64,000 bases of DNA from an uncultured virus (IMG/VR IMGVR_UViG_3300028591_000145) (IMGVR_UViG_3300028591_000145); one strand, 5' to 3'. Positions 29,996 through 54,013 are shown, numbered from the stretch's first letter. Made by a program: numbers and translations. The notes: generated by a model from the letters alone, not told the origin.

Positions 29996-30064
29996 ATAGC
30001 ACCAACCTTTCTACCGCATAACTTTTAGCGGTCAAGCGGCTACTCATCCCAATCGAGTAGTCGG
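29996..30064 (-). promoter_or_regulatory. Two-hairpin leader motif, copy A
   Basis: CCGACTACTC-loop-GAGTAGCCG-CTTG-ACCGC-loop-GCGGT-AGAAAGG...ATG. Confidence 0.75.
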
Positions 30065-30112
30065 AGTTAATGAGTTACTATATATAAATCCATAAAGGAA
30101 TTATATTCGTAG

Positions 30113-30322
30113 TCATTTTCCTAGCATTTGCCACATCTGCAATGCTTGCTGATATTTTTGGTTGTAATAATCTTGTGAAACTTTTCCAGAATTAAGAAGA
30201 TTTTGAGCGAACTGCTGTGGGCTATTCCCATTTAGTTGCTGTTTGATTTGATTCATTTGATTTATTATATTAGAGGTATTTTGAAATGAATTTCTATTAA
30301 AGATATTAAACAATGTATTCAT
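30113..30322 (-). CDS. Cassette protein, small Gln/Asn-rich helical
   Basis: PQQFAQNLLNSGKVSQ..YNQ. Confidence 0.7.
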   Translation of the reverse strand: MNTLFNIFNRNSFQNTSNIINQMNQIKQQLNGNSPQQFAQNLLNSGKVSQDYYNQKYQQALQMWQMLGK

Positions 30323-30327
30323 AATCG

Positions 30328-30765
30328 TTAATTTCCTTTACGTCTTTGCTGACTGTCATCGAGTTTCTTCGGTTCTAAAATTTCAGCAATACGTTTTTCA
30401 AACTCTTCCCGTGTAACATATTCAGGTTGTTGTTGAGCCTGAATCTGTGGCTCTGTATGCGCTTGCTGTGTGCGTTCCGTATAATCAAATATTCTTAACG
30501 GCAACGGCATACCGCTTGCATCTGCCGACTTAATGTAGAACACATTTGCATTGCTATCCATAAGCATTACGCTCTGACCGGGAGCAACGCCATAACTTCT
30601 AGCAGAACTTTCACCGTCAACCCAATTAAAAGGATTGGCGTTCACTTGTTGTGTTTGTGGTTGTTGTATTTGCATTTGTGGAATAGTTTGTTGAACTGGT
30701 TGTTGAATTTGCTGTACTGGATATACTGGTTGGTATCCGGTTGGGTAATAATTGTAATTCATCAT
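30328..30765 (-). CDS. Cassette protein with Gln/Pro-rich linkers
   Basis: WVDGE..A..Y.V.PG..V.LMDS...FYIKSAD.SG core; YVTREEFE tail. Confidence 0.75.
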   Translation of the reverse strand: MMNYNYYPTGYQPVYPVQQIQQPVQQTIPQMQIQQPQTQQVNANPFNWVDGESSARSYGVAPGQSVMLMDSNANVFYIKSADASGMPLPLRIFDYTERTQQAHTEPQIQAQQQPEYVTREEFEKRIAEILEPKKLDDSQQRRKGN

Positions 30766-31142
30766 TTATCGCCTTTCGCAAATAGATATGAAATTACTTC
30801 TCTGCCAGAATCCCATGAATCAAAGTAACTTCCGTCTATCGAAGTGACTACATGTGACCCTGTAGCTAGCACGTATATGCCTTTAGTATGATCGTTACAA
30901 AAATCAGAAATGGTATAGCAATATGGACATGTATTTGGTAACGCAAATCTTTGAAACCCATTTTGCATCAGATATGTTCCCCATACATGGTTAGCTGATG
31001 GCATATCTTTCATTGCGAAGCCTAGAAGCATGAGGTCTAAATACACATCATCCCAAGTCATATCACAGGCTTTTGTTAATGCACGAATAACGCAATCGCC
31101 TATATTTGAACCTTTTGGGTTTGGATTATAAAAAATATACAT
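30762..31142 (-). CDS. Cassette protein, putative papain-fold cysteine peptidase
   Basis: NP...GDCVIRA...H...DG..FDSWDS (Cys-His-Asp order). Confidence 0.65.
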   Translation of the reverse strand: MYIFYNPNPKGSNIGDCVIRALTKACDMTWDDVYLDLMLLGFAMKDMPSANHVWGTYLMQNGFQRFALPNTCPYCYTISDFCNDHTKGIYVLATGSHVVTSIDGSYFDSWDSGREVISYLFAKGDK

Positions 31143-31216
31143 ATGCCCTGCCCCTTATATGCAGTATTATATTGCATATATAAAAAATATAAAATAAACT
31201 AAAAGTATATTTTTCG

Positions 31217-31519
31217 TCATTCATCATCTTTGTGTATCGTAATGATTTCTTCACATTTGTACGCAATTTTCTTAGATGAAGTTGTAGATATATCTAGCAA
31301 CTCTGCTATTTCTTCAAATGTTTTTCCTTCACAAAAACGTAATTCAGCAACTTCTTTTTGCCTTGCGTTTATAATCCATTCATTGATGATTTTATTGACT
31401 TTAGAAATAGAAATACCGAAATATATTGGATGTTTCTTTCTTTTCTTAGTTTGTTTGTTCGAAATATTTTTAATGTCCATTGCTTCACTCCTGTTTTTAT
31501 AATAAAAAATAAAAAACAC
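31217..31519 (-). CDS. Sigma-70 region-4-like HTH regulator
   Basis: RFCEGKTFEEIAELLDISTTSSKKI. Confidence 0.7.
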   Translation of the reverse strand: MFFIFYYKNRSEAMDIKNISNKQTKKRKKHPIYFGISISKVNKIINEWIINARQKEVAELRFCEGKTFEEIAELLDISTTSSKKIAYKCEEIITIHKDDE

Positions 31520-31543
31520 CCCTCACAGTTTTTATGAGGGGTT
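31510..31543 (-). terminator. Terminator upstream of the cassette
   Basis: CCCCTCA-loop-TGAGGGG followed by a T-run. Confidence 0.65.
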
Positions 31544-31737
31544 AAGTCATTTGCATATTCAATTATATATTACAAACAAATTGAGGTATGTTTCTTTCGC
31601 AATCTTCAACGATGTATTCATCGTTCGCGTTTATAACTTCTAAATAATCATACATAGCATCATAAAGCATTTCTTTATATACTTCTTCTCGCCCGTATTT
31701 AACGGACAATTCAATAATTCTATTTAATTCATATATA

Positions 31738-32082
31738 TCATCCATCTTGCGTTTCTTCTTCCTCTGTGTAACCACTTCCCTCAATAAATACCGGAACGCT
31801 ATTAGTAGTGATTCTATCGCCACCATATACTGATACATAAATATATCCACTGTTCGCCAATACTTCAAACGGAATAAAACACATTCCATCGGAAATAGCA
31901 ACTTCGTGCTTAATATTCTGTTCATTTACAAATACGGCAGTTTTTGTATCAATACTATCCCAATCATCTGTAGTAAACTCAAATGAAGCAAGTAGATAAT
32001 TTTTTGAACCTGCGACTGGAATAAAAGTATCCGTCCTAGTCAAAGATTGATTGATTACTCTAAAATTTAATTGTGCTATCAT
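31738..32082 (-). CDS. Tail-associated protein, BppU N-terminal-like
   Basis: NYL...F.F..DW....KTAVF...C.IP.EVL...G...VSV.G...ITTN. Confidence 0.65.
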   Translation of the reverse strand: MIAQLNFRVINQSLTRTDTFIPVAGSKNYLLASFEFTTDDWDSIDTKTAVFVNEQNIKHEVAISDGMCFIPFEVLANSGYIYVSVYGGDRITTNSVPVFIEGSGYTEEEETQDG

Positions 32083-32097
32083 TTATACATTCCTTCA

Positions 32098-32301
32098 TTA
32101 TTCAACTGCGTCAACAAATTCCTGTGCGTAATCCATAAGTTCATTTGCAAGATTTTTAGTTTCACTTGCTGTAATAACTCGATCAATACGTTTATTGTCA
32201 GAAGTAACTTTCCCAGAGTTCTCGTCAATTTCTGAATATGTAATGCTCATTCTCATTCCAACTGCGTCATTAAATACTGTCATTGATGTAACTGTTTTCA
32301 T
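32098..32301 (-). CDS. Small hypothetical tail-module protein
   Basis: G.R.S.TYSEIDE..G....N.R motif. Confidence 0.65.
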   Translation of the reverse strand: MKTVTSMTVFNDAVGMRMSITYSEIDENSGKVTSDNKRIDRVITASETKNLANELMDYAQEFVDAVE

Positions 32302-35300: not shown

Positions 35301-35513
35301 TGATATTTGCTGCGAATGCCTGTCTATAGAATTCTCAGAACTATTCAATCGACTTGTAACGGTTTTGCTTTTATCTTCGTACTCTTCTATATCTGATTCG
35401 GATATCAAATAGCTGATTTTCCCGTTTACAACATTAAATTGCGTGTCCTGAGAACTAAACTTATTCGCTATGGCAGCATCTTGATAAAGATTAGTCTCTT
35501 TCTCAAATCTCAT
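32301..35513 (-). CDS. Tail fibre with internal repeats
   Basis: Coiled coil, P.PPY..GD.W units, ~10-aa TITA..IA.G repeats, three LDLSGVLKVGAL repeats, C-terminal YCYET..P.FGDIGEG domain. Confidence 0.85.
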   Translation of the reverse strand: MRFEKETNLYQDAAIANKFSSQDTQFNVVNGKISYLISESDIEEYEDKSKTVTSRLNSSENSIDRHSQQISSLQTDIVGINGNIDTFKSEVNTFEQTTNSTISSITSTVATKTQVWTVQPTVPYLANDFWIRDNVLYVCTVSRAIGSFNASDWKPATKGRIFTSEPTPPYYSGDAWMQGDTGEILFCNATRLTGDCNIDDWKKASKYTDDSAFNNWTQNTYNSFIEQLPSQINLQVTGSREIDANTKYTSKASIIATINDQIFESGVRINADRITLDGDATINAINGATGNVVVNANKVNLNAYATFTALQTAGATIINGANIETGTITAREIGSKTITADNIASNTITANQIASETITANEIATGTITADQIAAKTITSDEIATGTITASEIATGTITADNIASGTITADKLDVNYLTASDVDDEGSTVISGSRIKTGSINADLIKAGTLQSQDSVNYPNFSINLTDGTINIKKGGIDLGRGSFIVDDDGNVTLKKGSITIGSNENFKVDKDGTVTMKSATITGYLKPADIGDNGSTTISGNRIQTGTIAAARLDLSGVLKVGALNNYPTKDNLKTLNGTTINGGNITTGTISAERLDLSGVLKVGALDGYATKTSLSAYATTDSLSNGTTTISGGCITTGSITGKNGNVVFDLTNGTLTMNRGSINIGNNFIVNTDGSAELKSVTITGSPSISGYATNAKLNGYVTIDNLKTSGKTEIHGANITTGTISASHLDLSGVLKVGALDGYAKETSLSSYATKTSLKDGTTTISGGCITTGKIQSSDQDVVFDVAGGKLTMNYGSINIGRGVFKVDTSGNLTATKATLNGTITNKSSVSGQLPQAIILDNGQLIVKANSTTIGRFYCGWISTNVNKTIMLESSSSYNTDMFFKVGSKEIHISSSGVDVTGNFTVNGKKPRIIQTKNYDTRTYYCYETSSPLFGDIGEGIINEDGNCYITIEPFIYETIQTSDYQVFLQKYGNGECYISERNEFYFIVRGTPGMHFGWELKAKQVDWEHSRLNSHTMRFHDPGNNIGYITESEDYLRDKEKTDFNYSDAALLHIEKLYEERTI

Positions 35514-35535
35514 TTCTAATCACCTATAGATTTAA

Positions 35536-35827: not shown

Positions 35828-35831
35828 ATTC

Positions 35832-36857
35832 TTATCTCCATAAACTTTCGTAATAATTGTCCATACGTTTCAATAATTTGTATGAATTGCCAAAGCTAGC
35901 ATTTTCTTTCCAACATCTGTAACATTCATCTATTTTACTTTTAGCTATTAATCCTAACTTCGATTTTTTTACCATCTTTTTTAATTTTCTCTTTTCATGT
36001 TTAACATTATCTCAGTTTAAACTTTTAATAATTTTACCAGAGTTTGTAATCCTGTATATAAAGCCTAAAAACAGAAAACCATCTCTCAATGTTTTGATAT
36101 GTGTTTTCTTTTTATTAATGTTTAATTTGATCTTAATTAATTCATTTTCTATTTGAGTGAGGATATTACATAACTCATTATAGTCATTATGTAAAATTAA
36201 TATGTAATCCATATAACGGATATAATATTTCACATGAAGTTGTTCTTTGATATAGTGGTCTATTCTATCGAGAAATGAAATACCTGCAATTTAAACCATC
36301 TGACTGCCCGGATTATAACCTGTATCGCCAGTATATTGAGTATCAAGCACATCAATTGTCATTTCGTATATATCGCTATCTAATTTCTCTTTAAAACATT
36401 TCTTTACTTCCGCATGATCCATACTTTGATAATATTTTTCAATATCAATCTGTAAAACATAACCTTCTATACCGTATTTACTATAATAGCGTTGTATAAA
36501 AGTTGTTAAACGCTGTCTTGCAAAACTTGTGCCTTTTCCATTTTGACAAGCACAATTATCATAAATAAATGAATTCGTCATTTTAGGGTATAACTCATTA
36601 TCATTTAAACTTCTTTGATACACCCTATCTTTAAATGATATAGCAAGACCTTGACGCTTCTTAGGATATGTAATTAGAATTTCATGTGGTTTACCATTTG
36701 TCCATGTTCCACTTTTAAGACTTTCTTCCATTTTTAAACACTCTTCGATTCCATTTAACGTAAAGTGCTTAGTCGAAGTTTTCCACAATACATTCTTTTT
36801 ACATTTATTCATTGAATCGTATAAGTTTTCAAAATCTACTATTTCTTCTCTTTTCAT
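35832..36857 (-). pseudogene. DGR reverse transcriptase with two in-frame stops and YMDY in place of YxDD
   Basis: Single frame of 342 codons: PKKR, FKDRVYQ, ACQNGKGT, LQIDIEKYY, GSQMV*IAG (TAA 36291-36293), YIRYMDY (36204-36215), GFLFLGF, LN*DNVK (TGA 36012-36014). Confidence 0.9.
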
Positions 36858-37014
36858 TTTATAAAAATCTCTTGTAACTAATCGAATCATGCTTAATATA
36901 AGTCCACCGCGAAACAAGAGTATTGTTTAGCTTTTCAGCAGGGAGTATAGGCTCCTTGTGTTCTAATTTTAACAATATAAATACAATTCTTGTATTCTGA
37001 TATATTGCTGTATG

Positions 37015-37140
37015 ACACAATCGGCTCGACCCTATTCGCGTTCGAAGCGTTGTTGTTGTTGACGTTGCCACTGGAATTGACATTCCAAGTGTTATTCGCG
37101 TTGCCACGATTAGCCGACCGCAAACGGACGTTCTGAGCAG
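37015..37140 (-). repeat. DGR template repeat (TR)
   Basis: AAC/AAT-rich 126-bp copy of 37661-37789, between avd and RT. Confidence 0.95.
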
Positions 37141-37163
37141 TTAGCCTATATCCCATAGTAGTA

Positions 37164-37595
37164 TTATTCTGCTAATTTTCTATATCTTTCACGATCAGAT
37201 TCGTGCCACTTCTGAATCAAGTTTCTGGTTTTAATTGTTAACTCAGCCCAATATTTTGACTTCTTACATCTTAAATGATATAATCTTTTGGCTAAGTCAA
37301 TATAACACAATAATGTGTTGCAATTCACTATAGCCATTTTCTCATACTTTTCTCTAATAATCCAGTTATTTTTACTATCTGCTCTTATATGATTTGCAGT
37401 CCATGTATATCTATATACTGTCATAGCATTATTAATAATCTCTTGCGTAATCATAGAATAGTCTTGTTTAAAAATATTTGTATTAGAACAGATTTTTATT
37501 GTATGTAACGCTAATTCTTTTGCTGAATCGACTGCATAAAACATATTATTGGACGGAATATCTTTTATATGTCTTTCTCCTGCATTTACAGACAT
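37164..37595 (-). CDS. avd: DGR accessory variability determinant (Avd-like four-helix bundle)
   Basis: Basic helical 143-aa protein with AN.I...R and W........I.KW..SD..RY, between target and TR. Confidence 0.85.
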   Translation of the reverse strand: MSVNAGERHIKDIPSNNMFYAVDSAKELALHTIKICSNTNIFKQDYSMITQEIINNAMTVYRYTWTANHIRADSKNNWIIREKYEKMAIVNCNTLLCYIDLAKRLYHLRCKKSKYWAELTIKTRNLIQKWHESDRERYRKLAE

Positions 37596-37615
37596 TTAAA
37601 TAAAATCCTTTCTTT

Positions 37616-37641
37616 TCCGGTGTGAAAGCGTTCATACCGGA
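37616..37641 (-). promoter_or_regulatory. DGR hairpin/cruciform downstream of the VR
   Basis: TCCGGTGTGAA-AGCG-TTCATACCGGA: 11-bp stem with one mismatch and a 4-nt loop, 8 bp after the target stop. Confidence 0.8.
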
Positions 37642-37649
37642 TTGTTTGA

Positions 37650-38990
37650 TTAACCGATGAACACAAGCGGCTCGACCCTAGACGCGCCCGAAGCGCCGCC
37701 GTCGCCGCCGACGCTGCCACTGGAAAAGACAAACCAAGTGAGATACGCGTTGCCACGACTAGCCGACCGCAAACGGACGTGTTGAGCAGAGCTATGATTT
37801 TCAACAGCATACTGTTTTAAAATTTCATAGGTTTGAGATTGCTGCCATTTTGTATCGGTTCCGTTTAATTGTTTCCAATATTCATGCGTTTCACCTTCAC
37901 CACTAGCCTGAGGATTTATATACATTTGTTCGAGCGATATAAGGCCTACTTTATCATATGTAATATCGGCTTCACCACCGTCATTCACAGTATTTGTATA
38001 TGTTATATATTTAACTGGCTTAATGGACGCAATCAAAGAATTTGACATACCAGAAAGATATCCGGCTTTTTGTGTTAATTGATCCGGTGCAATATCCCAA
38101 TCATCTTGTGCGGTCCACCATTGTCCTTTAGGCAATGAAGAATTTAACCATTGACGTATAGCAGATGTTTTCCATCTATTCCATCCATAAGCCATTTCCT
38201 GAGTCGAATTAAGATTTCCAGTCCGTTGATTTAGTTTTTGAGTGCCAAGATTTGTTCCGTCAGCAGTAAATGTTGGAGTTACTGTTTCAAGAATAGTTTT
38301 TCCATCAGCAGAATATGCATATATCCTCCAATTTGATTTTGCTTGGTCTGGCGCGCCATAGCAACCTGCAATCCTTCCACCAACTGGCACATCTTCTGTA
38401 AGTGTGAACGATACTGTGTCACCTGCTAAAACATTATTCCCCCATGTAGATTCGATTGTAAAATAATACGTTCCTGCTGAAAGCCCATCCGGACACCTTA
38501 GAAATGCTCTTTGATGTGAAAACTGTATTCCAAAAGGAGTGGCATATTTATTTTGCAGCCACATACCTGATATTTGTATTCCACCTTCGGTTTCAACAGT
38601 TTCATAATGATTAACTCGCCAAGGATTATCGTATGAAGCATTATTATTTTCGACATCAACCCACGGGTCTGATATTTCAGTGCCTATAGGGTATTTATCA
38701 ATATTGCCTGTTCTTGCATCATTAACAATTTCTAGCCATTCAACAGATTCTTCTAATGCAGATACTCTTGCCGATAAAGTATCTACATTTGTATTGATTG
38801 TGTTAATTGCTGAAGCTACAGTTTGAGTTGAACCTGCTAAACTTGTTGCAGTATTCTGAACTGTATAAACACCAAAATCCTGCATACTAACCTGATATCC
38901 TTCTAATAAGTCAATTCCAAGAAGTTTATCTGTAGACGTTATTTGTTCACTTGTTTTAATAGGTAATTCAGTTATATTCTGGTCTGCCAT
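37650..38990 (-). CDS. DGR target protein, probable receptor-binding protein with C-terminal CLec-like (DUF6273-like) domain
   Basis: W..SAIRQWLNS, DKV.L.S..Q, RLRS, V...G, RVEPL C-terminal pattern; contains the VR. Confidence 0.88.
   Translation of the reverse strand: MADQNITELPIKTSEQITSTDKLLGIDLLEGYQVSMQDFGVYTVQNTATSLAGSTQTVASAINTINTNVDTLSARVSALEESVEWLEIVNDARTGNIDKYPIGTEISDPWVDVENNNASYDNPWRVNHYETVETEGGIQISGMWLQNKYATPFGIQFSHQRAFLRCPDGLSAGTYYFTIESTWGNNVLAGDTVSFTLTEDVPVGGRIAGCYGAPDQAKSNWRIYAYSADGKTILETVTPTFTADGTNLGTQKLNQRTGNLNSTQEMAYGWNRWKTSAIRQWLNSSLPKGQWWTAQDDWDIAPDQLTQKAGYLSGMSNSLIASIKPVKYITYTNTVNDGGEADITYDKVGLISLEQMYINPQASGEGETHEYWKQLNGTDTKWQQSQTYEILKQYAVENHSSAQHVRLRSASRGNAYLTWFVFSSGSVGGDGGASGASRVEPLVFIG
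37661..37789 (-). repeat. DGR variable repeat (VR)
   Basis: Differs from TR almost only at TR adenines; encodes the target C-terminus. Confidence 0.95.
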
Positions 38991-45600: not shown

Positions 45601-48600
45601 TGCAAATGCTTTTCCAATTTTATTGCCCGCCGTAACAACATCTAAATCAGCGAAGAATGACCTTATAGAATCAATTATGCCGTTTAATCCCGTATAAACT
45701 GTAGATGCAATAAAATCAAAATTTACAGTGTCGATAAGAGAATTGATACCTTTTGCAAACATTGATCCAAGTTCTTTCCAGTTGAAATTGGATACAAAAT
45801 TATATGCAACAGTAAATAATCCATTAAGAACATTCCCTAATGCAGTACCAATTTTATTTATATCAATTTGGCTTATTAACAGATTTGCATTTTTTGCAAG
45901 TTTTCTACCTGCGTTCGCCCATTTGAAATTCTCAGCAAATCTATTTACAGCATCAGCTATTCCGTTTAGTCCATGTGAAAGCATATTCGCTAAAGATTCT
46001 AAGTCTACTTTATCAACAAAAGCATTAGCACCTTCTGCAAGTTTTTCACCAAGATTACCCCAGTCAAACCTTTTTGCGAATCCTTCTGCTGTTTGCCAGA
46101 TCATGTTTAATTTATTAGCGAAGAAATTACCTATCTCATCAAATGGAACAGCTTCTACTAGACTATTTGCTCCGTTCGCTAATTGTTCTCCTAGCCGTTT
46201 CCAGTCAATGCCCTCAATAAATCTATTGACGGAACTGATTACTACGTCAATTCCTTCACCGATTAAAGTTCCAATATCTTCGAAATCAATCTCGTCAATA
46301 AGTCCGTTAAATGATTCGGTAAATGCATCTATCCAATATCCAATCTTTTCCTTTACTTCAGTTGGATTGAATATTTTAAGAAGATAGTCGATAAAATCAT
46401 TTATTCCTTTTGCTACTTCTCTGCCAAGTCCATCCCAATTTCTCTTATCGAACTGTTCTTTGATACGTTTTGCCCATTCGCTGACGTAATCTTCAAGTTT
46501 CTTTAACGGAGATTCTAGTCCGTCAAAATCCAAATCAAACATATCGCCCATCATCTCATCGAAATTTCCGATATTTGGCGTATATGTTCCACTTGAAGGT
46601 TCTTTTTCTTTTTTTGTATCTGTTGAATTCTGAATATCTTTTGATAATTGATTCAGTTCATCGAACGGAAGTACAGATAGGTCTTTTGCTAATTTCTTTG
46701 TTGCTTCATCTGCATCTGCGAATCCATCAGCTATGCCACTTGCGCTATCTGACATACCGTCAAGTTCGTCTTGTGCTTCATCCATGCCGTAATCTTCAAA
46801 AGTAAATCCACCTGATCCACCTTTGTATTTTCCGAAAAGTGTCTGCATGAATGTTGAAAACGCTTTAGCAACTACAAGGACTTTTTCAAGAAGTTTATTA
46901 AGTAGAATTACCACATGTCTAATTGCAGCAGCAAAACCAACTCCTAGTTCCGTTGTGATTGACTCGAAATTTGCGCGAAGAATTCTAATGCCGTTTGCCA
47001 ACGACTCTGAAGTACGTTGAAAGTCCCCGGCCTGCATAGCAGTATGGTCAAGTAGATACTGATAACGAAGCATCACCTTCTCAGCTTGTGTCATTTCAGT
47101 CCATGATTTAGTAATTCCTCTTGCTAAAGCATATTCTTTCAATGTGGCAACGCTGAGATCAATGCCTAAGCTACGTAATGGTCGCACCATCCCGGCAAGT
47201 CCTGCTTGAATCTTCTGGTACGCATCGGCTGTATCAATATTATAGAAAGCGGATAAATCACCTGCTAATTCGACCATTTTTACAGCCATTACAGATGAAT
47301 TATCTGAAGAAATATTCGATGCTTTGAACATTGCATTCAAAGTACCTGCGTACTGTTTAGCAGCACCTTTTGCGATACCGAATTGTTTGATAGCATTGTC
47401 TGCCCAATCATTTATGTATCCGGTCATATTTTCACCGAATACTGATTCTATAATATGGTCAATTTCTGTAATATCGCCGCCTAGCTTCAATGCTTCTTTA
47501 GACCAGTTAAATACACCTGTTATACCACGAAAACCAATTACCGTGGCTAAAAGGTTTTTCAGACTGAAGTGCATTGAATCCACACTACTTTTTGATTTTG
47601 ATAAATCTTTTATTTTGTTTGAAAATGACTGAATTGCATTTACAGCATTAGTGCCTATGCCTTTTGCAATTTTTGCAGTACCAGATAAAATACCTTTGTA
47701 TGTATCTGCTACTATGATGCCTAACTTCTTAAACAATGATGAAAGCGTTTTTACTGAATCACCAAATACCTTTAATATTTGGTTAGCCCGTTTGATTGTG
47801 GAATTCCCGTTATGTACATTATTTTTAAACGATTCGATAGATGTACCTGCACGTTTACCACTCATAGAAATCTGAGCAAGCGCATTTGCAGTTTGTGCTA
47901 CATTATCTGATATAGTGATATTTGACAAATAATCAAAGAAACTTTGTACTTCAACAGCTAACTGCGGAAATACTTTCACAGTCTCAGATAGTTTTTGAGT
48001 GCTGCGTAAGAATGATGAAATTGACTTAAAGATATTGACTGATTCTGGATCAATTTGGCTAATCTTGTCTAACTGTTTGAATAATTCATCCATCGAATTA
48101 ATATCGAAGTTCTTGCTTTCAGTTGACAACCTAGCGAATGCATTTATAAACGATGTAATACCACCAGTTTTTAAATCAACACTTTGTAAGTTCTGAAGTT
48201 GTTTTCTCAGTGTGTCTACATCGCCTGAAACTTGTGAAATATCTTTTATCTGTAATCCTTCAAATGAATTTTTCAACTCTTGTTTAAGATTAGAAGTATC
48301 AACTCCAAGTTTTACATTGATTTTTCCATAATCCTTTTTCGCAGCTTCATTTATCGCTCTTTCTATTTGAGTAACAAATCTGTTTGGGTCAATTTTTAAA
48401 TCAAGTGGGATAGTTTTAGCAGATTTTTGCATATTGGATGCAATCGTGCTATTTACTCCATCTATTGCTTTTACATAAGAATCGTTTACAGAATTAAAGA
48501 CGTTTGTTTTAATCTTTGATATTTCATTTGGGTCAAACAATGAAATTGTTTTATTTGCAAGTTCATCTTTTGTAAAACGAATCTTTTCAAGCAATGCATA

Positions 48601-49404
48601 AACTTGATCTTCTTCATTTTCAATATCACGTATATTCATCATGATACCGGGGAAGTTGCTTATCATATCTTCCCAAATGGTATCTATGTTTTTTCCACTT
48701 TTTTGATTGAAAAACAGTTGTCTTTCTGTTCTTGATGTACTTTCGTTAAAATTTCTAGTATCTACGGCATCTGTTAATTTAATTTTATTCTGATTAACAT
48801 AAGCAAGAAAATCTTTATAAACTTCCTTCATCCCTGTAATGGATTCGTCAAATGATTCTCTTGCTACTTTTCCGTGTTCAATAATAAATTTAAAAACTTC
48901 TTCTGTATCGTTTAAATCGCCCATACGGTTTTTATCTACTGCTATGTTTTTACCCATTTGAGCGATCATATTTGTTAATTTATCCGCATCTGCGCCTTTA
49001 ATGTTATACGTATCAGCTAAATCTTTCGCTATACCATCTGTTATAGTATGAATATCTGACGCAGTTTTTTGAACAGCATATTTAAGCCTTTCTGCTTTAT
49101 CAAAACCACTAATTTCAAGTGAGAGATTTAATTTCTTATCTTGAAGATTTTTAAGGTCTATTCTGCTGAGTTTATCTAATTGGTCGATTGTTTTCGATAA
49201 ATCAGGCATTTTTAATCCATCTAATCCGGATAATGCCTTTATTACACTTCTTACATTGCCTACATTATTTCCAATCTTTTTTAATGGAGTATTTAGACCC
49301 ATTAAGGACGCGCACAGCCTGTCTATAGACTGTTCAGCCTTTGCGGAACTGGACGCTATTTCTATTTGTAGGCTATCTATAGTCATATCATTATTTTCTG
49401 CCAT
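42652..49404 (-). CDS. Tape measure protein (2250 aa)
   Basis: Very long helical ORF after the tail chaperones; periodic W/F repeats; C-terminal FAKGG...GEAGDEAVIPL. Confidence 0.93.
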   Translation of the reverse strand: MAENNDMTIDSLQIEIASSSAKAEQSIDRLCASLMGLNTPLKKIGNNVGNVRSVIKALSGLDGLKMPDLSKTIDQLDKLSRIDLKNLQDKKLNLSLEISGFDKAERLKYAVQKTASDIHTITDGIAKDLADTYNIKGADADKLTNMIAQMGKNIAVDKNRMGDLNDTEEVFKFIIEHGKVARESFDESITGMKEVYKDFLAYVNQNKIKLTDAVDTRNFNESTSRTERQLFFNQKSGKNIDTIWEDMISNFPGIMMNIRDIENEEDQVYALLEKIRFTKDELANKTISLFDPNEISKIKTNVFNSVNDSYVKAIDGVNSTIASNMQKSAKTIPLDLKIDPNRFVTQIERAINEAAKKDYGKINVKLGVDTSNLKQELKNSFEGLQIKDISQVSGDVDTLRKQLQNLQSVDLKTGGITSFINAFARLSTESKNFDINSMDELFKQLDKISQIDPESVNIFKSISSFLRSTQKLSETVKVFPQLAVEVQSFFDYLSNITISDNVAQTANALAQISMSGKRAGTSIESFKNNVHNGNSTIKRANQILKVFGDSVKTLSSLFKKLGIIVADTYKGILSGTAKIAKGIGTNAVNAIQSFSNKIKDLSKSKSSVDSMHFSLKNLLATVIGFRGITGVFNWSKEALKLGGDITEIDHIIESVFGENMTGYINDWADNAIKQFGIAKGAAKQYAGTLNAMFKASNISSDNSSVMAVKMVELAGDLSAFYNIDTADAYQKIQAGLAGMVRPLRSLGIDLSVATLKEYALARGITKSWTEMTQAEKVMLRYQYLLDHTAMQAGDFQRTSESLANGIRILRANFESITTELGVGFAAAIRHVVILLNKLLEKVLVVAKAFSTFMQTLFGKYKGGSGGFTFEDYGMDEAQDELDGMSDSASGIADGFADADEATKKLAKDLSVLPFDELNQLSKDIQNSTDTKKEKEPSSGTYTPNIGNFDEMMGDMFDLDFDGLESPLKKLEDYVSEWAKRIKEQFDKRNWDGLGREVAKGINDFIDYLLKIFNPTEVKEKIGYWIDAFTESFNGLIDEIDFEDIGTLIGEGIDVVISSVNRFIEGIDWKRLGEQLANGANSLVEAVPFDEIGNFFANKLNMIWQTAEGFAKRFDWGNLGEKLAEGANAFVDKVDLESLANMLSHGLNGIADAVNRFAENFKWANAGRKLAKNANLLISQIDINKIGTALGNVLNGLFTVAYNFVSNFNWKELGSMFAKGINSLIDTVNFDFIASTVYTGLNGIIDSIRSFFADLDVVTAGNKIGKAFADMINGIHWKDLGTGLAEIWNKAWSFLNEFISNLGTTDVRVEGLYSFNNISQSDIDKALKKGTGIGQAIHDALKSAIESVKTEDMVDSINNLVKKIAYDISTAFGDPSMWFDLGKKFGDAFSQIIGNKENGKDLAQAFNDLVDAFLFLIRGVISGLSEHKGEIGESLVTIFKEIDWGDLALLVGAAATAKIIEKIPIILAGCALKSTLEKELSKIFTGVGASESVVTSGGAIFNSIKTAIMSPAGLIGAIAAASKAVAELYDLLRGGNGILTETGAAIDSLVNELGGMNKITPELREELFHLKEDLELNKITSEEFGQKFVEALQKSNVSAEEAKGIIASLGERLGGLNENQVQTLLDLISEMPETAGTSGDALSQLGVTGEEAFNGIRRGITDAGAEFGAQGLIVSQSLAENIESAQRFGTDVGVALDEAKNKWEEQGLSVETLRNKIDNYLEEGAFDALITSVNNSGEAFDSTKSKVDEYGNSVKTAGELAETATGHTDAYNEATGKSPSLIETLLPIIGGLASKFLASFGQKDQYYSTMETNIDETGKAVDDKGSVLTNAIQTLASKALATFRTNLPNYKSSAEEIPKGISTGIDEKQQEPVDMVQQMSEMMQEKFALHNGIHSPSTVYSEMAENIPLGVSEGIKNKEPDVLNALESFATSMTTKAETLVNNLKSSLEKGGSEAVEKLVNGMQSKEDVLSQQIEKIKGIFDKFAESVSEIANSAYRQGEMITGKLVEGMDSRKDELDRVIVDIATSLTEFVKFIELVKDKTEEEASGISNGLVSGLNSSRDDVSEIFNDISSKFDDFLGNLSDIAEEFKTAGENIINALQEGLNSAKLMIPTINVEWETKYYNNGQNWVDIPKFSVEYPWFAKGGLFTDPSIVGIGEAGDEAVIPLTNRRTMGMIADAITANSSGIGLDEQSLIDAVAQGYVRAMMANQNNQQQPIINVVCKTENDEVLFRAVERGRSSVQYRNNPTAQY

Positions 49405-49445
49405 ATATACGCCCCCTTGATATACATATAAAAAGACGGTAGTAT

Positions 49446-49823
49446 TTAACTACCGTCACTCAATGTTTTTGGCACCGAAAACAATTCACGCATATTATCT
49501 GCAAATTGTTCTCTTATTTTATCTTTTTCGCTTTCAGACATATCTTCAGTAACTTCGATATTTATTTGAGGTTCATTTTTTTCGAGTGGTTTCTTAGGAT
49601 ATTTTACTTTCTTTCCATTTAAAGCACTTGCCACAGCCATTCTTACATAAAGACCGTTAAGCCATGCGGAGTATTCAATTTCCTCTGTTTTAATCTTGAT
49701 TTCACTTTTCTTTCGTGAATCATATTCTTGTATAAATATCTCAATATCATTCGGAGTGCTATGAAAATAATCATGCTTAGACATTCCACGACTAATCGCA
49801 GCTCTGTATAAGCGTCCAAGCAT
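49446..49823 (-). CDS. Tail assembly chaperone, gpT-like (-1 frameshift extension)
   Basis: In the -1 frame of 49823-50284 and open back to the slippery site; YPKKP motif. Confidence 0.8.
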   Translation of the reverse strand: MLGRLYRAAISRGMSKHDYFHSTPNDIEIFIQEYDSRKKSEIKIKTEEIEYSAWLNGLYVRMAVASALNGKKVKYPKKPLEKNEPQINIEVTEDMSESEKDKIREQFADNMRELFSVPKTLSDGS

Positions 49824-50284
49824 TACGCTTCTATAACTTTCATTTGCTTCTTCTTGTGATCCTGCGGCACTTTCTTTGGTTTCTTCTCGTTCGTCCCAAT
49901 TATACTGCTCATACCTACTAGATCGAAAAAACCATCTTCACCCATTTGATCAGCACATGTGGTGAAAAGATCATACCAGTTATCTATGCCACTTTCTTCA
50001 TCACGAAGCAACGCGACTGCAAGCCTTTTAGCAGTATTTATATCTGGAACTGTTTTATCACCATCTGGATGAGAGCCATGATGTTCAAGCAAACCTGCAT
50101 AGAAGCAAACCAATGCTGTGTACGGAATATCTGAAACTCCTGAAAGCATTTGCTTCATGTTATCGCCATTACTGAGATCAACAACCAATCCTGAAATCTT
50201 TTCAATGCATTCATGACAAAGCGATGCTTCAATTGTGAATTCAAGTTTATAATCTTTACCGTTGATAGTCATTGTTTTATACAT
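49823..50284 (-). CDS. Tail assembly chaperone, gpG-like
   Basis: Between the MTP and TMP genes; EDGFF encoded by GGTTTTTTC. Confidence 0.85.
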   Translation of the reverse strand: MYKTMTINGKDYKLEFTIEASLCHECIEKISGLVVDLSNGDNMKQMLSGVSDIPYTALVCFYAGLLEHHGSHPDGDKTVPDINTAKRLAVALLRDEESGIDNWYDLFTTCADQMGEDGFFDLVGMSSIIGTNEKKPKKVPQDHKKKQMKVIEA

Positions 50285-50319
50285 AAAGTGCGGCCTCCCG
50301 TATTTTTAATATATCTCTA

Positions 50320-50817
50320 TCATGTTGTAGAAGATGAAGAATCTGTCGGTTCAATCTTCGTATCCATTTCCTTGTATTCGTCAATAGTACAAGAAATAGA
50401 TGCAACAAGAAGTTCGTTCTGTCCAACATCCGGAAGAGGAACTTTCTCACCCGGCTGTGCTACAACGAAAAATGCTTCATCAAGGTTCGGAATATCAATC
50501 TGGAACCATGTTCTCTTACCACTTGCAAGAGCGGTTTTTGCGGATGTAAGCATTGTCTTATAGATAGTCTTGGTTTCGGTTGTAAGGTTGAAGTCAAAAC
50601 TCCAATCACCACCTGTTGACTGTCTACCTGCAATACTACGTTCAGTGCTGTCTTCAAGAGCAGACGCGTCAATAGTTTCAGTATCAAGTTCAATACCTGA
50701 AATCTGGTTTACTCTAGGAAGGAGAGTAAATGTAGCAGGTTTCTGTCCCGCAGTGGTTTCAATACCATAACTCAGTCGTACTCCGAGTGTACTAACACCT
50801 GCAATCGTAACTGCCAT
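50320..50817 (-). CDS. Major tail protein
   Basis: STLG..L.YG.E...G, ETIDASALED...I.GR..TGG. Confidence 0.88.
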   Translation of the reverse strand: MAVTIAGVSTLGVRLSYGIETTAGQKPATFTLLPRVNQISGIELDTETIDASALEDSTERSIAGRQSTGGDWSFDFNLTTETKTIYKTMLTSAKTALASGKRTWFQIDIPNLDEAFFVVAQPGEKVPLPDVGQNELLVASISCTIDEYKEMDTKIEPTDSSSSTT

Positions 50818-50877
50818 ATTAGTTTCCTTTCTCCCCTAATTATTTGGGGTAAGCGATTGCTACATATTAGCAATCGG
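50818..50877 (-). promoter_or_regulatory. Two-hairpin leader motif, copy B
   Basis: CCGATTGCTA-loop-TAGCAATCG-CTT-ACCCC-loop-GGGG-AGAAAGG...ATG. Confidence 0.75.
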
Positions 50878-50888
50878 TAAAATTGTCA

Positions 50889-51299
50889 TTATTCACTTAA
50901 ATCTCTTAGAAAATAGCCGCAATAGTTATTCAGAATAAAACGGCTTGTGATTTTTGTAACAGTATCACTTACCTTAATCAGTTCCGAATTACCTATTCTG
51001 CGGAAACCTAACTCAATAAAAAAGTTTGCACTTGCTGAATCAATATCATACAGCATTGTGTATTTATTTGAATTTATATAGGCTTCAGTCTCAAAAGTAA
51101 GGTTTATGCTTGCTTCATCATTTTGCAATGTACTACCACTTGTCGGTCTGCCTATAAGTCTGAAATTGGCATATGGGAAATTGGCTTGTTTCTTTGTGTC
51201 AAATACCATTCCGAAGTATTTCGCTTTAGAATTAGCTAACAGGTATTCTCTCCAAGCACTATAAACATCGTCTATATTGAATTCAATCCCAGTAGCCAT
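50889..51299 (-). CDS. Tail completion/terminator protein
   Basis: Position before the MTP; FPY and LGFRR motifs. Confidence 0.7.
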   Translation of the reverse strand: MATGIEFNIDDVYSAWREYLLANSKAKYFGMVFDTKKQANFPYANFRLIGRPTSGSTLQNDEASINLTFETEAYINSNKYTMLYDIDSASANFFIELGFRRIGNSELIKVSDTVTKITSRFILNNYCGYFLRDLSE

Positions 51300-51868
51300 T
51301 ACTTAAATACCTCTTTTGCTATCTCAATAAACTGTTTATGAATTTCCGCATCAGCATAGTACATTGGCATTGCGGCTTCTGTACCTTTGCTCATTACCCA
51401 TTCATGTGTTTCATCGTCAATATAAAACCAGTAATCTTCTAGCCCGTGACCTTTACCGTATGAACCTATAATCATTCCAAGTGGTTGACCATATGGATTC
51501 GGACTTGTGCCACCTGCGCCATTATAAGCAACACCTGCACCGAATTCAATAAAAGCTACATCTTTTCCGCATAAGGCAAGTGTGACTTTTACTTTTGAAC
51601 CAGATTCTTCTAACCACGCATATGTATGCAGGTCATTGAAATCAGAATCACCATGACTGTATTTATGAGCATCAATTACCCTAACTCCAAGTTCTGATAA
51701 TCTTTGAACAAATATAGATGTTTTAAATCTTATCTGTTCTTTATATAACTTCAGTTCCTTGCAAGTCTTTTTTATCGAATTAACCGATAAATTAACCTTG
51801 ACCGTCTTGCTCATCATCGTCACCATCTGGTTCGGGTTCAGGTTCAGTCTCTTCTTCTGTTTCTTCAC
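51299..51868 (-). CDS. HK97 gp10-like neck protein (true start probably ~51814)
   Basis: AFIEFGAG, W.Y, GT.A.MPMY. Confidence 0.75.
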   Translation of the reverse strand: MKKQKKRLNLNPNQMVTMMSKTVKVNLSVNSIKKTCKELKLYKEQIRFKTSIFVQRLSELGVRVIDAHKYSHGDSDFNDLHTYAWLEESGSKVKVTLALCGKDVAFIEFGAGVAYNGAGGTSPNPYGQPLGMIIGSYGKGHGLEDYWFYIDDETHEWVMSKGTEAAMPMYYADAEIHKQFIEIAKEVFK

Positions 51869-52247
51869 CTGCTATTTTCTTTATGCCATATCTCGCAATC
51901 GTTCCTCTAGCAGTATCCATTATGTGAGTTAACACATAATCTGGCTTTACATTCGGTTCACCGTTTTCACCTAATATTAGTTCGCCGTTGTCATCTAACT
52001 CAGGTTCCCTATCCACAAATAACACCATACCCTCTTCTGGGTGAAAATTCCTGTCAAATGATACAAAGTATCTTGTGTATTCAGAAACTAAACCGACTGG
52101 AAGTTCATGTGGCGTACCTGATGTGTTTGACACAGACACTCGATGCATTTCAGGTTTACTATATGCGGTTATCGGCTCCATGTGTGAATCATCTATACTA
52201 GCCTTGCATATCCAAATATTTTGCTTTCGTCTACGCAAACTTCTCAT
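51792..52247 (-). CDS. Head closure protein
   Basis: MRSLRR.KQ start, Y.KP and PDY motifs; neck position. Confidence 0.7.
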   Translation of the reverse strand: MRSLRRRKQNIWICKASIDDSHMEPITAYSKPEMHRVSVSNTSGTPHELPVGLVSEYTRYFVSFDRNFHPEEGMVLFVDREPELDDNGELILGENGEPNVKPDYVLTHIMDTARGTIARYGIKKIAGEETEEETEPEPEPDGDDDEQDGQG

Positions 52248-52351
52248 AATGTGACCTCATTTATTTATAATGTTCCTGCCCGCCTTTATTGGAACAACCC
52301 TACGCCAAGTACGTGAGGCCGCAACGCAACCATGACGCACACACATCCTAC

Positions 52352-52708
52352 TCATTTAACTATTTTAGCTATTGGAATAATGCCACGGAAGAAACTATCA
52401 GGAGTGCCACCAGATTCCCACGATGTAGTCTGACCCGCTTCATAAAATGTTGTAACACCTTCTTTGCCTATCTTATCGTAATGATATTCAGCAATTCGTC
52501 TGATATTTGTTCTGTATTTGTTCAAAACTTGTTTTTCTTGTGTTTCGCGTTCAGAATCATTATTGTATCCATTAGGGAATCTGGCATTCCTCACTTCTTC
52601 TATGGCATCATCAATCATAGCTTCAACGAGAGGACGCTGCTCATCTGTATAATCATCAGATGCATATTTGATTAGAATATACACAAGTTCCGCTCTCGTT
52701 GTGTTCAT
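52352..52708 (-). CDS. Head-tail connector protein
   Basis: Helical, Y.KIG.EG....E.G...W motif. Confidence 0.75.
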   Translation of the reverse strand: MNTTRAELVYILIKYASDDYTDEQRPLVEAMIDDAIEEVRNARFPNGYNNDSERETQEKQVLNKYRTNIRRIAEYHYDKIGKEGVTTFYEAGQTTSWESGGTPDSFFRGIIPIAKIVK

Positions 52709-52710
52709 CT

Positions 52711-52878
52711 TTAATCCCTCTTTACATTAGGTCTTCCACGCTTTTTGCTTGCTACGTCATCTGTTGTAGTATCAAGCTGCTGTTCAATATTATGAGCAGG
52801 TTTTTTCTCTTCAATCGGAACATTTTCTCCTGCCATATAGAGAACATCTTTATATTTTACAATATGATCAAAAACCAT
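52711..52878 (-). CDS. Small head-associated protein (55 aa)
   Basis: Read by hand: MVFDHIVKYKDVLYMAGENVP...KKRGRP; GAGG RBS. Confidence 0.65.
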   Translation of the reverse strand: MVFDHIVKYKDVLYMAGENVPIEEKKPAHNIEQQLDTTTDDVASKKRGRPNVKRD

Positions 52879-52891
52879 GTGATTACCTCAA

Positions 52892-53959
52892 TTATTTTAC
52901 TTTAAGCACATACAGACCATCCATGCCTTCAAATGACGGAAGTGCGATCTGAGAAACAGTTGTCTCATGACGTACAGGCGGGCCATAGATGTTCTGAATT
53001 GCAACTGCAATGCCAGAATCAAGAATTGAAACATCTACTTTTGCATCTCCAAGGAGTGTTCTTTCTTCCGGTGTTTGCCCTGTATATGTCGAACCAAGCG
53101 TTCCATCAGCGATAACGGACACATAATCATCCGGGAAGAATTTCTTCTGCGTGCCGTCATAATCTTCATACTTCTTATCGTAAATAAGAGGAATTAGACC
53201 TGTTTTTCTCTGAAAAACTTCTTTTGCTGTACCTCTGTCAAGGAAGTCAACTGCATTCCCGGTAATTGTAATAAGTGCATTCCTCATTTGGTCAGCGGAT
53301 ACAAGCATATTCAGAGTAGTTGTATTCATGAGTGCGTATTTCGCTGAATATCCATAATTCGCAAGAGCATCTACAGCATCCTGAATATCATTAAGTGGTT
53401 TACATGTGCTTGTCTGGTTCCACCTATTATCGCCTGTAAGCAGTTCATAATGATTATTCTTCCACGAACTATCCTGATCGTAGTTATACTTGTAAATCGT
53501 ATTATCAGCCGTGCCAATCTGAATGACCATATTACCGGAATCCGGAGCGAGAAGAGCCATTCTCATGCGTTCAGCAGCAATACGCGCACCATCGACAAGG
53601 TTTTTAACATCATCATATACATGCTCAATAGCATCCTGTGCAAACGGATCGTTAGCATCCATTGCCCTCTGAATTTCAAACAAATCCTTTTCTGAAATCT
53701 TCATAGATTCGCGGAAAAGTGGCATTTCCTCATTGACTACTGTGAAACCCTTGCGCGGTCTAATTGTTGCAAGAGCATCATATGTAGAAGGCTTCAGAAC
53801 TACGCCAAGCCCGTTATGAGCCTTAATCCATCTCAGGTCAATGCCTGCTTTTCTCTTTACCGGGAAAAATGCTTCACCCATATAAGGAATTGTATTACTC
53901 TTATCGTTCGTCAGACGAAAAGCGATACTTTTCGCTGTAAAAACATCATTAAATCTCAT
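52892..53959 (-). CDS. Major capsid protein (lambda gpE-like family)
   Basis: FFP.K...G, MPLFRE...I.E.D, E.MRM..L, G.TPEE, LPSFE. Confidence 0.9.
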   Translation of the reverse strand: MRFNDVFTAKSIAFRLTNDKSNTIPYMGEAFFPVKRKAGIDLRWIKAHNGLGVVLKPSTYDALATIRPRKGFTVVNEEMPLFRESMKISEKDLFEIQRAMDANDPFAQDAIEHVYDDVKNLVDGARIAAERMRMALLAPDSGNMVIQIGTADNTIYKYNYDQDSSWKNNHYELLTGDNRWNQTSTCKPLNDIQDAVDALANYGYSAKYALMNTTTLNMLVSADQMRNALITITGNAVDFLDRGTAKEVFQRKTGLIPLIYDKKYEDYDGTQKKFFPDDYVSVIADGTLGSTYTGQTPEERTLLGDAKVDVSILDSGIAVAIQNIYGPPVRHETTVSQIALPSFEGMDGLYVLKVK

Positions 53960-54013
53960 TTTATTTTACTCCTATATTTTTGAAGTCAGCGGCTACATCT
54001 ATTCTGTAGTCGG
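53960..54013 (-). promoter_or_regulatory. Two-hairpin leader motif, copy C
   Basis: CCGACTACA-loop-TGTAGCCG-CTG-ACTTC-loop-GGAGT...ATG. Confidence 0.75.

Follow-up and report, generated by a model that had tools for sequence, protein, structure and literature searches.

Three genes on the minus strand of the window (the whole 64,000-nt stretch of rumen phage DNA that was analysed) are each preceded by a two-hairpin leader, which terminates in the Shine–Dalgarno (SD) sequence of its downstream gene. The three minus-strand copies of the original prediction are present at 30065–29996, 50878–50818 and 54014–53960, together with all of the stems quoted for them. The genes and the parts of each leader are as follows.

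29129–29995, minus: 288-aa gene, PHROG 16490 (function unknown), no Pfam family
29996–30065, minus: copy 1, leader of the 288-aa gene (ATG at 29995)
30063–30055 paired with 30045–30037, minus: copy 1 hairpin 1, loop GATTGGGAT
30036–30033, minus: copy 1 linker CUUG
30032–30028 paired with 30017–30013, minus: copy 1 hairpin 2
30012–30006, minus: copy 1 extended SD AGAAAGG
50320–50817, minus: 165-aa probable major tail (tube) protein, from sub-cut-off Pfam matches and synteny
50818–50878, minus: copy 2, leader of the 165-aa gene (ATG at 50817)
50876–50868 paired with 50862–50854, minus: copy 2 hairpin 1, perfect 9-bp stem
50853–50851, minus: copy 2 linker CUU
50849–50846 paired with 50836–50833, minus: copy 2 hairpin 2
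50832–50826, minus: copy 2 SD AGAAAGG
52892–53959, minus: 355-aa major capsid protein, PHROG 29 (E = 2e-46), Pfam Phage_cap_E (121.9 bits)
53960–54014, minus: copy 3, leader of the major capsid gene (ATG at 53959)
54012–54005 paired with 53997–53990, minus: copy 3 hairpin 1, with A.C as the third pair
53989–53987, minus: copy 3 linker CUG
53986–53982 paired with 53972–53968, minus: copy 3 hairpin 2, whose GGAGU arm belongs to the SD

The 165-aa protein matches Phage_tube_2, Phage_tail_3 and Phage_TTP_16 in Pfam, each under its cut-off. Its gene lies directly upstream of two small ORFs and then the 2250-aa tape measure (42652–49404), and owing to this position it is probably the major tail protein. 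The 288-aa protein has a Gly-rich N-terminus, one hydrophobic helix, Cys-rich motifs and a predicted single helix of about 165 residues; in the ESM Atlas it meets unnamed viral clusters only. Its gene belongs to a cassette of conserved order, p100-p126-p145-p69-[motif]-p288-p155-p141, in which the motif is intergenic within the operon, between p69 and p288. The gap from the end of the upstream ORF to the leader is 10, 28 or 47 nt across the three copies (10 nt at copy 2). Megablast of 29100–54050 against GenBank phages gave no match.

The window copies differ in stem sequence and keep their pairing: CTACTC/GAGTAG, TTGCTA/TAGCAA and CTACA/TGTAG in hairpin 1, and ACCGC/GCGGT, CCCC/GGGG and ACTTC/GGAGT (the last with one U.G) in hairpin 2. 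Single-sequence minimum-energy folds recover both hairpins for the tail and capsid copies, but give an alternative structure for the 288-aa copy; the z-scores of the three copies are −2.4, −2.1 and −1.2. The strict pattern CCGA-N14-30-YCGCTKAC occurs twice in the window against 0.10 expected (0 of 100 shuffles reach two), and a relaxed pattern that admits the 288-aa copy occurs three times against 0.65 expected (5 of 100 shuffles reach three), so that the pattern alone is only modestly unusual. With filters off, a search of both strands of the 64 kb by covariance model returned 13 matches at E ≤ 10. The model scored the copies at 54.1, 63.9 and 57.0 bits (copies 1 to 3; copy 1 reached 43.3 bits under model R2), values that hold by construction since the three copies served among its seeds. 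Its informative results are instead the absence of a fourth copy within the 64 kb, where the next-best score is 14.1 bits and three of the remaining matches are reverse strands of the same hairpins, and the independent matches outside the window.

The model found about 90 more distinct copies, in viral contigs, in prophages of Clostridia MAGs and in the cultured Butyrivibrio phage Ceridwen, and the motif is recurrent in many gut and rumen Clostridia phages. The element is about 53 nt long and consists of two simple hairpins. Hairpin 1 has nine pairs on a conserved stem base, with the consensus A-U (43 of 47 copies), C.C (41/47), C-G and G-C followed by a G.U or A.C wobble (29/46 and 38/46). 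Pair C3–G59 is C-G in 41 of the 47 copies, G-C in four and U-A in one, and pair G4–C58 is G-C in 43; the top pairs are variable, the last being unpaired in 17/47, and loop 1 ranges from 1 to 27 nt. A CU-N-A linker leads to hairpin 2, a CC/GG hairpin of four to five pairs with an A-rich loop of 9–10 nt, after which comes GGAGG or AGAAAGG.

Both stems covary strongly. In 47 distinct copies, 88.9% of cells are paired against 66.7% in shuffles. Double-sided changes number 157 against 46, a level that none of 500 shuffles attains, and when the register is slid pairing falls to just 30–55%. Another set, of 47 distinct copies collected by pattern, gave 90.7% against 72.0% paired and 125 against 34.5 double-sided changes, and RNAalifold recovered both hairpins from a plain MAFFT alignment. 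Could the copies nevertheless be a chance or selfish repeat without function? The relaxed DNA pattern by itself is only mildly unexpected in the window, but every copy lies on the gene strand, directly 5′ of an SD, and strong covariation extends over about 90 distinct sequences ahead of non-homologous genes; these comparative data refute the idea.

The strand on which the element folds can be read from the same alignments. Compensatory changes that include G.U pairs are seen on the mRNA strand only, and all 37 first-round matches are on the gene strand; the mRNA strand is therefore the folding strand, and these comparisons indicate that the element acts at the RNA level. This bears on a reading of the element as a DNA-level signal, a late promoter or operator recognised by a transcription factor of the phage or the host. 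Several copies head late gene modules, as phage-specific promoters do, and in other phages the 288-aa-type leaders have, further upstream, an additional palindrome centred on GTGCRCA and then TATAA. Such a signal would, however, have to tolerate conserved blocks whose spacing varies widely with the 1–27 nt of loop 1, as well as stems that covary with strand-specific G.U pairs; the covariation of basal pair 3:59 places that pair in the RNA, and a promoter built from the conserved blocks would start transcription at or past the SD. No sigma-70-like site (−35/−10, 16–18 nt spacing, minus strand) lies upstream of any window copy, and promoter-like sites are not enriched over shuffles (16 against 19.8 and 28 against 28.8). 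The DNA-level reading is thus largely refuted and very improbable. An intrinsic terminator was also rejected: hairpin 1 is followed by CU-N-ACC and not by a U run, and the terminator scan gave no such site at the copies.

No Rfam 15 family matches the leader. At the gathering threshold the whole window yields ROOL, skipping-rope and two tRNAs, and permissive scans (E ≤ 10) of 29960–30100 and 50790–54050 gave nothing at the copies. Small ribozymes are frequent in phage intergenic regions, and about a dozen near-invariant nucleotides gather around the junction of this ~53-nt motif, as might be expected of a small self-cleaving ribozyme or a ligand-sensing riboswitch. We nevertheless regard either as highly unlikely: there are two simple hairpins only, Rfam yields neither a ribozyme nor a riboswitch match even at E ≤ 10, and loop–loop, loop–flank and loop–downstream complementarity shows no excess over partner-shuffled controls in five combinations, by a crude measure that is blind to non-Watson–Crick contacts. 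A term search of the main text of Weinberg et al. (2017; PMC5737381) gave no capsid-associated motif. Six contig numbers do not appear in the passages and three spreadsheets of Fremin et al. (2023; PMC10690425) that were searched, although the motif may be listed there as an unnamed candidate. Comparable RNAs are GP20-a (RF02991) and GP20-b (RF03003), candidate cis-regulatory structures just upstream of a head-assembly (scaffold) gene in Firmicutes phages, which co-occur with the leader in two carrier phages (G003 and G005). They differ from it in sequence and fold, neither model matches the window copies, and they are tied to one gene family whereas the leader serves many non-homologous structural genes. 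Taken from sequence comparison, the three copies belong to an undescribed, portable family of RNA leaders of Clostridia phages.

The portability is best seen from the downstream genes. The original prediction had the leader shared by capsid, tail and 288-aa genes, which holds in unrelated phages too: it precedes capsid genes of five unrelated families (PHROGs 29, 544, 371, 1357 and 267), PHROG 158 tail-tube genes, tape measures, PHROG 6616 tail proteins and the 288-aa family. Such a range indicates a leader portable between phages and between non-homologous structural genes. In a gene-agnostic scan the tape measure was the commonest downstream gene (20 of 78 matches), one further match stood ahead of a gene like the window's tape measure, and eight preceded the PHROG 6616 distal-tail protein. 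The leader can therefore not be a mark of the highest-copy products, as had been proposed; since tape-measure and distal-tail proteins are low-copy virion parts, the further suggestion that the 288-aa protein is made at structural-protein levels does not follow from it.

The motif is also dispensable: of 80 viral loci that encode 288-aa homologues only 20 carry it, and of 80 such genome loci only 12, and it is absent ahead of the capsid and tail genes of the complete phages G004 and G005. The relative G001 keeps it at its capsid and tail genes and lacks the whole 288-aa cassette. Host genes with the leader were also sought. Only 2 of 151 genomes of the order gave a match, in a scan of low sensitivity in which 37 candidates were scored per genome, and the extra matches examined in five MAGs were two more prophage 288-aa leaders and two terminator-like false positives. 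A first loose pattern scan of viral contigs gave mostly noise, with model matches at 6 of 80 loci.

By tblastn, no ORF of the window is matched in every one of the five carrier phages (G001–G005), and a phage-encoded partner was rejected on this ground. With no phage protein common to all carriers, it is probably the host machinery that reads the leader. ROOL and skipping-rope RNA were likewise rejected as partners, both being absent from carriers G001, G003, G004 and G005.

The position of the leader relative to the gene start is fixed. Hairpin 2 abuts or contains the SD, as originally claimed: in 47 of 47 copies the start codon lies 7–19 nt beyond it, after GGAGG or AGAAAGG. In the GGAGG class two invariant G of hairpin 2 form part of the SD, the first two G of GGAGG are hidden in the hairpin in about half of the copies, and the 5′ arm (ACCU, ACCC or ACCG) looks like an anti-SD. 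The leader may also be viewed as a translation-initiation operator. A host or phage RNA-binding protein, or the 30S subunit using it as a standby site, would bind the stem base and A-rich loop and thereby make hairpin 2, next to the SD, open or close, which would time or tune translation without cleavage. The fixed place beside the SD and start codon fits this view, as do the SD-containing, anti-SD-like hairpin and a stem base conserved at the nucleotide level in the way typical of protein recognition. On the other hand, the SD is left free in the AGAAAGG class, so its occlusion is not conserved, and no candidate binding protein is common to all carriers. Only 16 of 47 copies have a CsrA-type GGA within loop 1 or at its edge, and the capsid and tail copies of the window are not among them, so that a CsrA-binding leader was rejected. 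We consider the operator possible, though less likely than not.

In tailed phages one long late transcript encodes the virion parts, which are needed in very different amounts. In the reading that we favour, with a probability of roughly 0.45, the leader is an intercistronic processing and stabilisation element that works in cis with the host machinery. As part of the long late mRNA it folds into a stable 9-bp stem with a non-canonical base and a second hairpin that runs into a strong SD, and it would probably act as a punctuation mark of this polycistronic transcript. Cleavage by a host endoribonuclease of the RNase Y type would fall either in the AU-rich stretch ahead of hairpin 1 or in the linker behind it. 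This would leave a hairpin at the end of the upstream message and a protective one at the start of the downstream message, next to a strong ribosome-binding site, so that capsid, tail tube, tape measure, distal tail and 288-aa cassette might each gain their own mRNA stability and translation level.

Several known systems resemble parts of this scheme. Gram-positive 5′ stabilisers include the aprE and ermC leaders, the cryIIIA STAB-SD and the SP82 polypurine stabiliser. Like the leader, they join a stem-loop to a very strong SD, AGAAAGG or GGAGG, whose complement is the 16S rRNA 3′ end, and the strong SD directly after hairpin 2 in 47 of 47 copies recalls them. They stand at primary 5′ ends and form no sequence family, whereas the leader is operon-internal and a conserved family. 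In phage T7 and in the early mRNA of Bacillus phage SP82, repeated, conserved intercistronic hairpins are cut by RNase III and the products keep protective hairpins. The leader resembles these sites as a repeated hairpin, conserved in sequence and structure, between cistrons of a polycistronic mRNA. RNase III requires about two helical turns of duplex, and an RNase III site (about 20 bp) was rejected, as hairpin 1 has nine pairs and hairpin 2 four to five. The B. subtilis enzyme reportedly cuts long-range structures (PMC11780869).

A parallel from the host lineage is the cip-cel cellulosome operon of Ruminiclostridium cellulolyticum. There, intergenic stem-loops of selective RNA processing and stabilisation (SRPS) serve as cleavage signals, stabilise the ends and so determine the stoichiometry of the subunits. 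They need two G-C pairs at the bottom of the stem, and a small upstream hairpin with an AU-rich stem base moves cleavage upstream and leaves abundant downstream mRNA (PMC10311766). SRPS stem-loops and phage motif alike are intercistronic hairpins of a long operon in a Clostridia-type host, with G-C pairs at the base of the stem and an AU-rich flank. A small upstream hairpin is found in many 288-aa-type leaders too, and in both cases a role in the part stoichiometry of a large assembly is proposed. They differ in that the cip-cel hairpins have a common structure and not a common sequence, whereas the phage motif conserves sequence, including the C.C mismatch and wobble, carries a second hairpin that runs into the SD, and is portable from phage to phage. 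The cip-cel hairpins have been shown to be cleaved; at the phage leader we purely infer it.

Some features argue against the processing and stabilisation reading. The motif is dispensable, a hairpin 2 that hides the G's of GGAGG would lower and not raise translation, and A1, C2, C60, U61, A64 and the loop-2 pattern are conserved beyond the need of a generic stabiliser hairpin; the consensus of RNase Y is reported to be weak (PMC11780869). The stem base and A-rich loop might form a specific signal for a dedicated Clostridia endoribonuclease or RNA-binding protein, a tentative idea that we think is probably not right. If it is, a portable ‘mRNA punctuation code’ would be common to thousands of gut and rumen phages and would set the stoichiometry of their virion modules and of the 288-aa rod cassette.

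The leader opens a tangible way into the post-transcriptional control of Clostridia phages from rumen and gut, marks the 288-aa rod cassette as expressed in the manner of a virion module and could become an expression part for Clostridia that are hard to manipulate. Phage Ceridwen, which is in culture together with Butyrivibrio fibrisolvens DSM 3071, has one copy of the motif at MN882553.2 23515–23566, which makes the question directly testable. Metatranscriptome contigs from four runs on 49800–55300 are fragmentary, cover neither motif and have no piled-up ends. One RNA-library contig runs from the upstream gene into hairpin 1 of a relative (loose end 50891), at most a weak hint of co-transcription.

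The window represents the late genes of a tailed phage or prophage, and almost every gene in it is on the minus strand; gene identities come from PHROG and Pfam matches. As the original prediction held, three of these genes (major capsid, tail-tube-like and 288-aa) are each preceded by a leader extending from (A/U)CCGA, via two hairpins, to a Shine–Dalgarno (SD) sequence and the ATG.

Late genes in order of transcription (PHROGs, Pfam), with leader copies
Terminase, portal, head morphogenesis, scaffold-like and 142-aa head genes
54014–53960 (−), leader copy
52892–53959 (−), major capsid gene
Four small connector-type ORFs
50878–50818 (−), leader copy
50320–50817 (−), 165-aa tail-tube-like gene
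Two chaperone-position ORFs, then the 2250-aa tape measure
Genes for distal tail proteins, and a diversity-generating retroelement
Further tail genes, then a run of small genes
30065–29996 (−), leader copy
29129–29995 (−), 288-aa gene, within the small-gene run
Holin and endolysin

Other features
63653–64000 (−), ROOL RNA (Rfam, 147.8 bits; 5′ end lost at the window edge)
63203–63547 (−), HU-type DNA-binding protein, adjoining the packaging genes
61816–63222 (−), family-8 glycosyltransferase
61736–61807 and 17219–17308 (−), two tRNA genes (Rfam)
55320–56264 (−), radical-SAM protein, within the head module
36012–38990 (−), the diversity-generating retroelement
37650–38990 (−), 446-aa protein with a Hoc-like domain, probable retroelement target
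37164–37595 (−), Avd-like ORF of the retroelement
36291–36917 (−), reverse-transcriptase match on a 208-aa ORF of the retroelement
17732–17811 (−), skipping-rope RNA (Rfam, 58.7 bits)

The short ORFs on either side of the 208-aa ORF may be pieces of one reverse-transcriptase gene. Neither ROOL nor skipping-rope RNA was found in four other phages carrying the leader. In the gap separating the final chaperone-position ORF from the start of the tape measure (49404), a G+C-rich 9-bp hairpin followed by UUUUUAUAUG (49435–49457, minus strand) occupies the site where the two-hairpin leader stands in other phages.

Taken as a plain DNA pattern, the leader is only slightly unusual: two matches to its strict form occurred in the window (0.10 expected) and three to its relaxed form (0.65 expected), the latter count being equalled in five of 100 shuffles. 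A covariance model run over the 64-kb window with all filters off scored the three copies at 54–64 bits and the next best match at 14, and detected no fourth copy. That the leader exceeds chance is settled by the comparative evidence, which we regard as decisive. Relatives of the three downstream proteins were taken from IMG/VR, where diverged copies differ in stem sequence while keeping complementarity. Applied to 611,537 bases from 100 of these loci, the model, seeded with 15 sequences, gave 37 matches, each of them on the gene strand. One rebuilding round yielded 47 distinct copies, in which 88.9% of cells were paired (66.7% when shuffled) and 157 showed double-sided, compensatory change (46 when shuffled, and as high in none of 500 shuffles), although this alignment was fitted to the model and so is biased towards the structure. 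Sliding the partner by 1–3 columns lowered pairing to 30–55%. RNAalifold predicted the same two hairpins from the untouched MAFFT seed alignment, and a second set of 47 distinct sequences, gathered by a DNA pattern that left the stems unconstrained, gave a similar result, with 90.7% of cells paired (72.0% when shuffled) and 125 double changes (34.5 when shuffled). Both stems covary strongly, and the frequent G·U pairs identify the mRNA strand as the one that folds.

At the base of hairpin 1, A1 faces U61 (A–U in 43 of 47 copies), C2 and C60 form a conserved C·C mismatch (41 of 47), position 3:59 covaries (C–G in 41, G–C in four, U–A in one) and G4–C58 is almost fixed; the pair that follows mostly has wobble geometry (G·U or A·C in 29 of 46 cases for the first set, and in 38 of 46 for the second). 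Above lie five or six freely covarying pairs and a purine-rich loop of 4–9 nt (extremes 1 and 27). The linker C-U-N-A leads to hairpin 2, whose stem combines an invariant CC/GG with two covarying pairs. Its loop measures 9 nt in 27 of 47 copies and 10 nt in 17; A makes up 57% of the loop, and UUA is its usual ending. The ribosome-binding site takes two forms: GGAGG, which includes the two invariant G residues of hairpin 2, with the start codon typically 11 nt on, or U-AGAAAGG 3′ of hairpin 2, for which the typical distance to the start codon is 15 nt. AGAAAGG is perfectly complementary to the 3′ end of Firmicutes 16S rRNA. In all 47 copies the start codon lies 7–19 nt past hairpin 2. The 5′ flank is AU-rich (73% A+T over 15 nt).

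The leader recurs well beyond the window. Four complete phages (G002–G005) each carry one copy 5′ of a 288-aa homologue, those in G004 and G005 being upheld by a filters-off search, as does the cultured Butyrivibrio phage Ceridwen (47.8 bits); the relative G001 carries two, 5′ of its capsid and tail-tube genes. A gene-agnostic IMG/VR scan with a tightened pattern found at least 142 stretches; of the 80 loci retrieved, 75 contained model matches, 78 in total. Among the matches listed, the downstream gene was a tape measure (PHROG 1535, 20, plus one resembling that of the window), a 178-aa PHROG 3099 protein that takes the major-tail position some 1.65 kb ahead of the tape measure (14), a PHROG 29 capsid (eight), a PHROG 6616 distal-tail protein (eight), a 288-aa family member (seven), a PHROG 158 tail tube (two clusters, four each), a capsid of PHROG 544, 371, 1357 or 267 (one each), a fibre-like protein (one) or a 27-aa fragment (one), with six weak or unclear; these counts are not independent events because many matches are closely related contigs from one data set. 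The list of gene kinds is robust, and several of the proteins had no BLASTP similarity to window proteins. The leader is thus portable and serves virion-module genes in general, beyond the most abundant products. The original prediction had tied it to the highest-copy products, and hence made the 288-aa protein abundant; the tape-measure and PHROG 6616 matches among those listed, both low-copy virion parts, do not support that restriction, and abundance of the 288-aa protein does not follow from the leader. In two carriers, G003 and G005, the Rfam leaders GP20-a and GP20-b lie 5′ of scaffold genes (L323 1277–1368, plus strand; L329 12346–12410, minus strand), so several different leader RNAs coexist in the late operons of these carriers.

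Several identities were rejected. A promoter is contradicted by block spacing that varies with loop 1, by a start that would fall at or past the SD if built from the conserved blocks, and by the covarying basal pair, which therefore lies inside the RNA; no sigma-70-like site was found upstream of any window copy. The motif lacks the U run of a terminator, its duplex is too short for an RNase III site, and GGA occurs in loop 1 in only 16 of 47 copies, against a conserved CsrA-type site. No sign of pseudoknots was found. Among the host genomes searched the motif occurs solely in prophage cassettes, which argues against a host element. Reliance on a phage protein common to the carriers is likewise rejected: the motif persists in G001 although the whole 288-aa cassette is missing there, and none of the window ORFs has a match in every one of G001–G005, which points to host machinery or purely cis action.

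The most likely function, we infer, is processing and end protection resembling that of the Ruminiclostridium cellulolyticum cip-cel operon. There, as PMC10311766 describes, hairpins with stem-bottom G–C pairs are cleavage signals that protect product ends, the enzyme is probably RNase Y, and a small upstream hairpin and an AU-rich stem base shift the cut upstream, making the downstream message abundant. The phage motif matches in its two basal G–C pairs, its AU-rich 5′ flank, its very strong SD and, for many leaders of the 288-aa type, an additional small hairpin immediately 5′ of it. A cut 5′ of hairpin 1 would leave the downstream mRNA hairpin-capped and ribosome-loaded, whereas with a cut in the linker, hairpin 1 would cap the 3′ end of the upstream mRNA. 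The main rival is a translational operator recognized via the conserved non-canonical stem base. How much of the sequence is conserved speaks for specific recognition; processing and operator may both act. The additional hairpin, with GTGCRCA in its loop or centre and followed by (U)UUAUAUAA, stands just 5′ of the motif in most 288-aa-type leaders of other phages (L070, L083, L048, L055, L098, L246, L224, L288, L292, L116; L475 23455–23490) and is missing from the window's own 288-aa leader. Its role may be to direct processing from upstream, to act as a weak terminator or to serve as the site of a regulator.

No copy matched a known Rfam family. The leader forms a new family of RNA motifs belonging to a known kind: candidate leaders of phage late genes with a cis-regulatory or processing role, GP20-a and GP20-b among them. 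It may already be present, unnamed, among the 8,495 candidates from IMG/VR in Fremin et al. (2023; PMC10690425).

The 288-aa gene (PHROG 16490) belongs to a huge family, with at least 7998 clusters matching at E ≤ 0.001, none of which has a Pfam family. Among 80 viral loci with a homologue, 20 carried the motif, as did 12 of 80 loci from bacterial assemblies; those assemblies are chiefly Clostridia MAGs of rumen and gut origin (Oscillospiraceae, Acutalibacteraceae, Lachnospiraceae and Ruminococcus among them). At these loci it is internal to a conserved cassette, p100-p126-p145-p69-[motif]-p288-p155-p141, rather than at an operon head; the window cassette has a promoter-like site (31193–31166) and a terminator-like hairpin (31542–31518) upstream of p126. 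An AlphaFold2 model built with 50 homologues (mean pLDDT 61, low confidence) predicts a Gly-rich, disordered N-terminus with a short hydrophobic helix (36–45), then a single helix of about 165 residues (94–257, pLDDT 70–88) and a Cys-rich tail. At three loci, two with tail-tube genes (L017 2624–3000, L020 2570–3000) and one with a 288-aa homologue (L226 1520–2500), a normal start after the motif is followed by broken reading, which stops after 19, 52 and 33 codons, respectively, and resumes some 320–880 nt on; these breaks look like intervening sequences.
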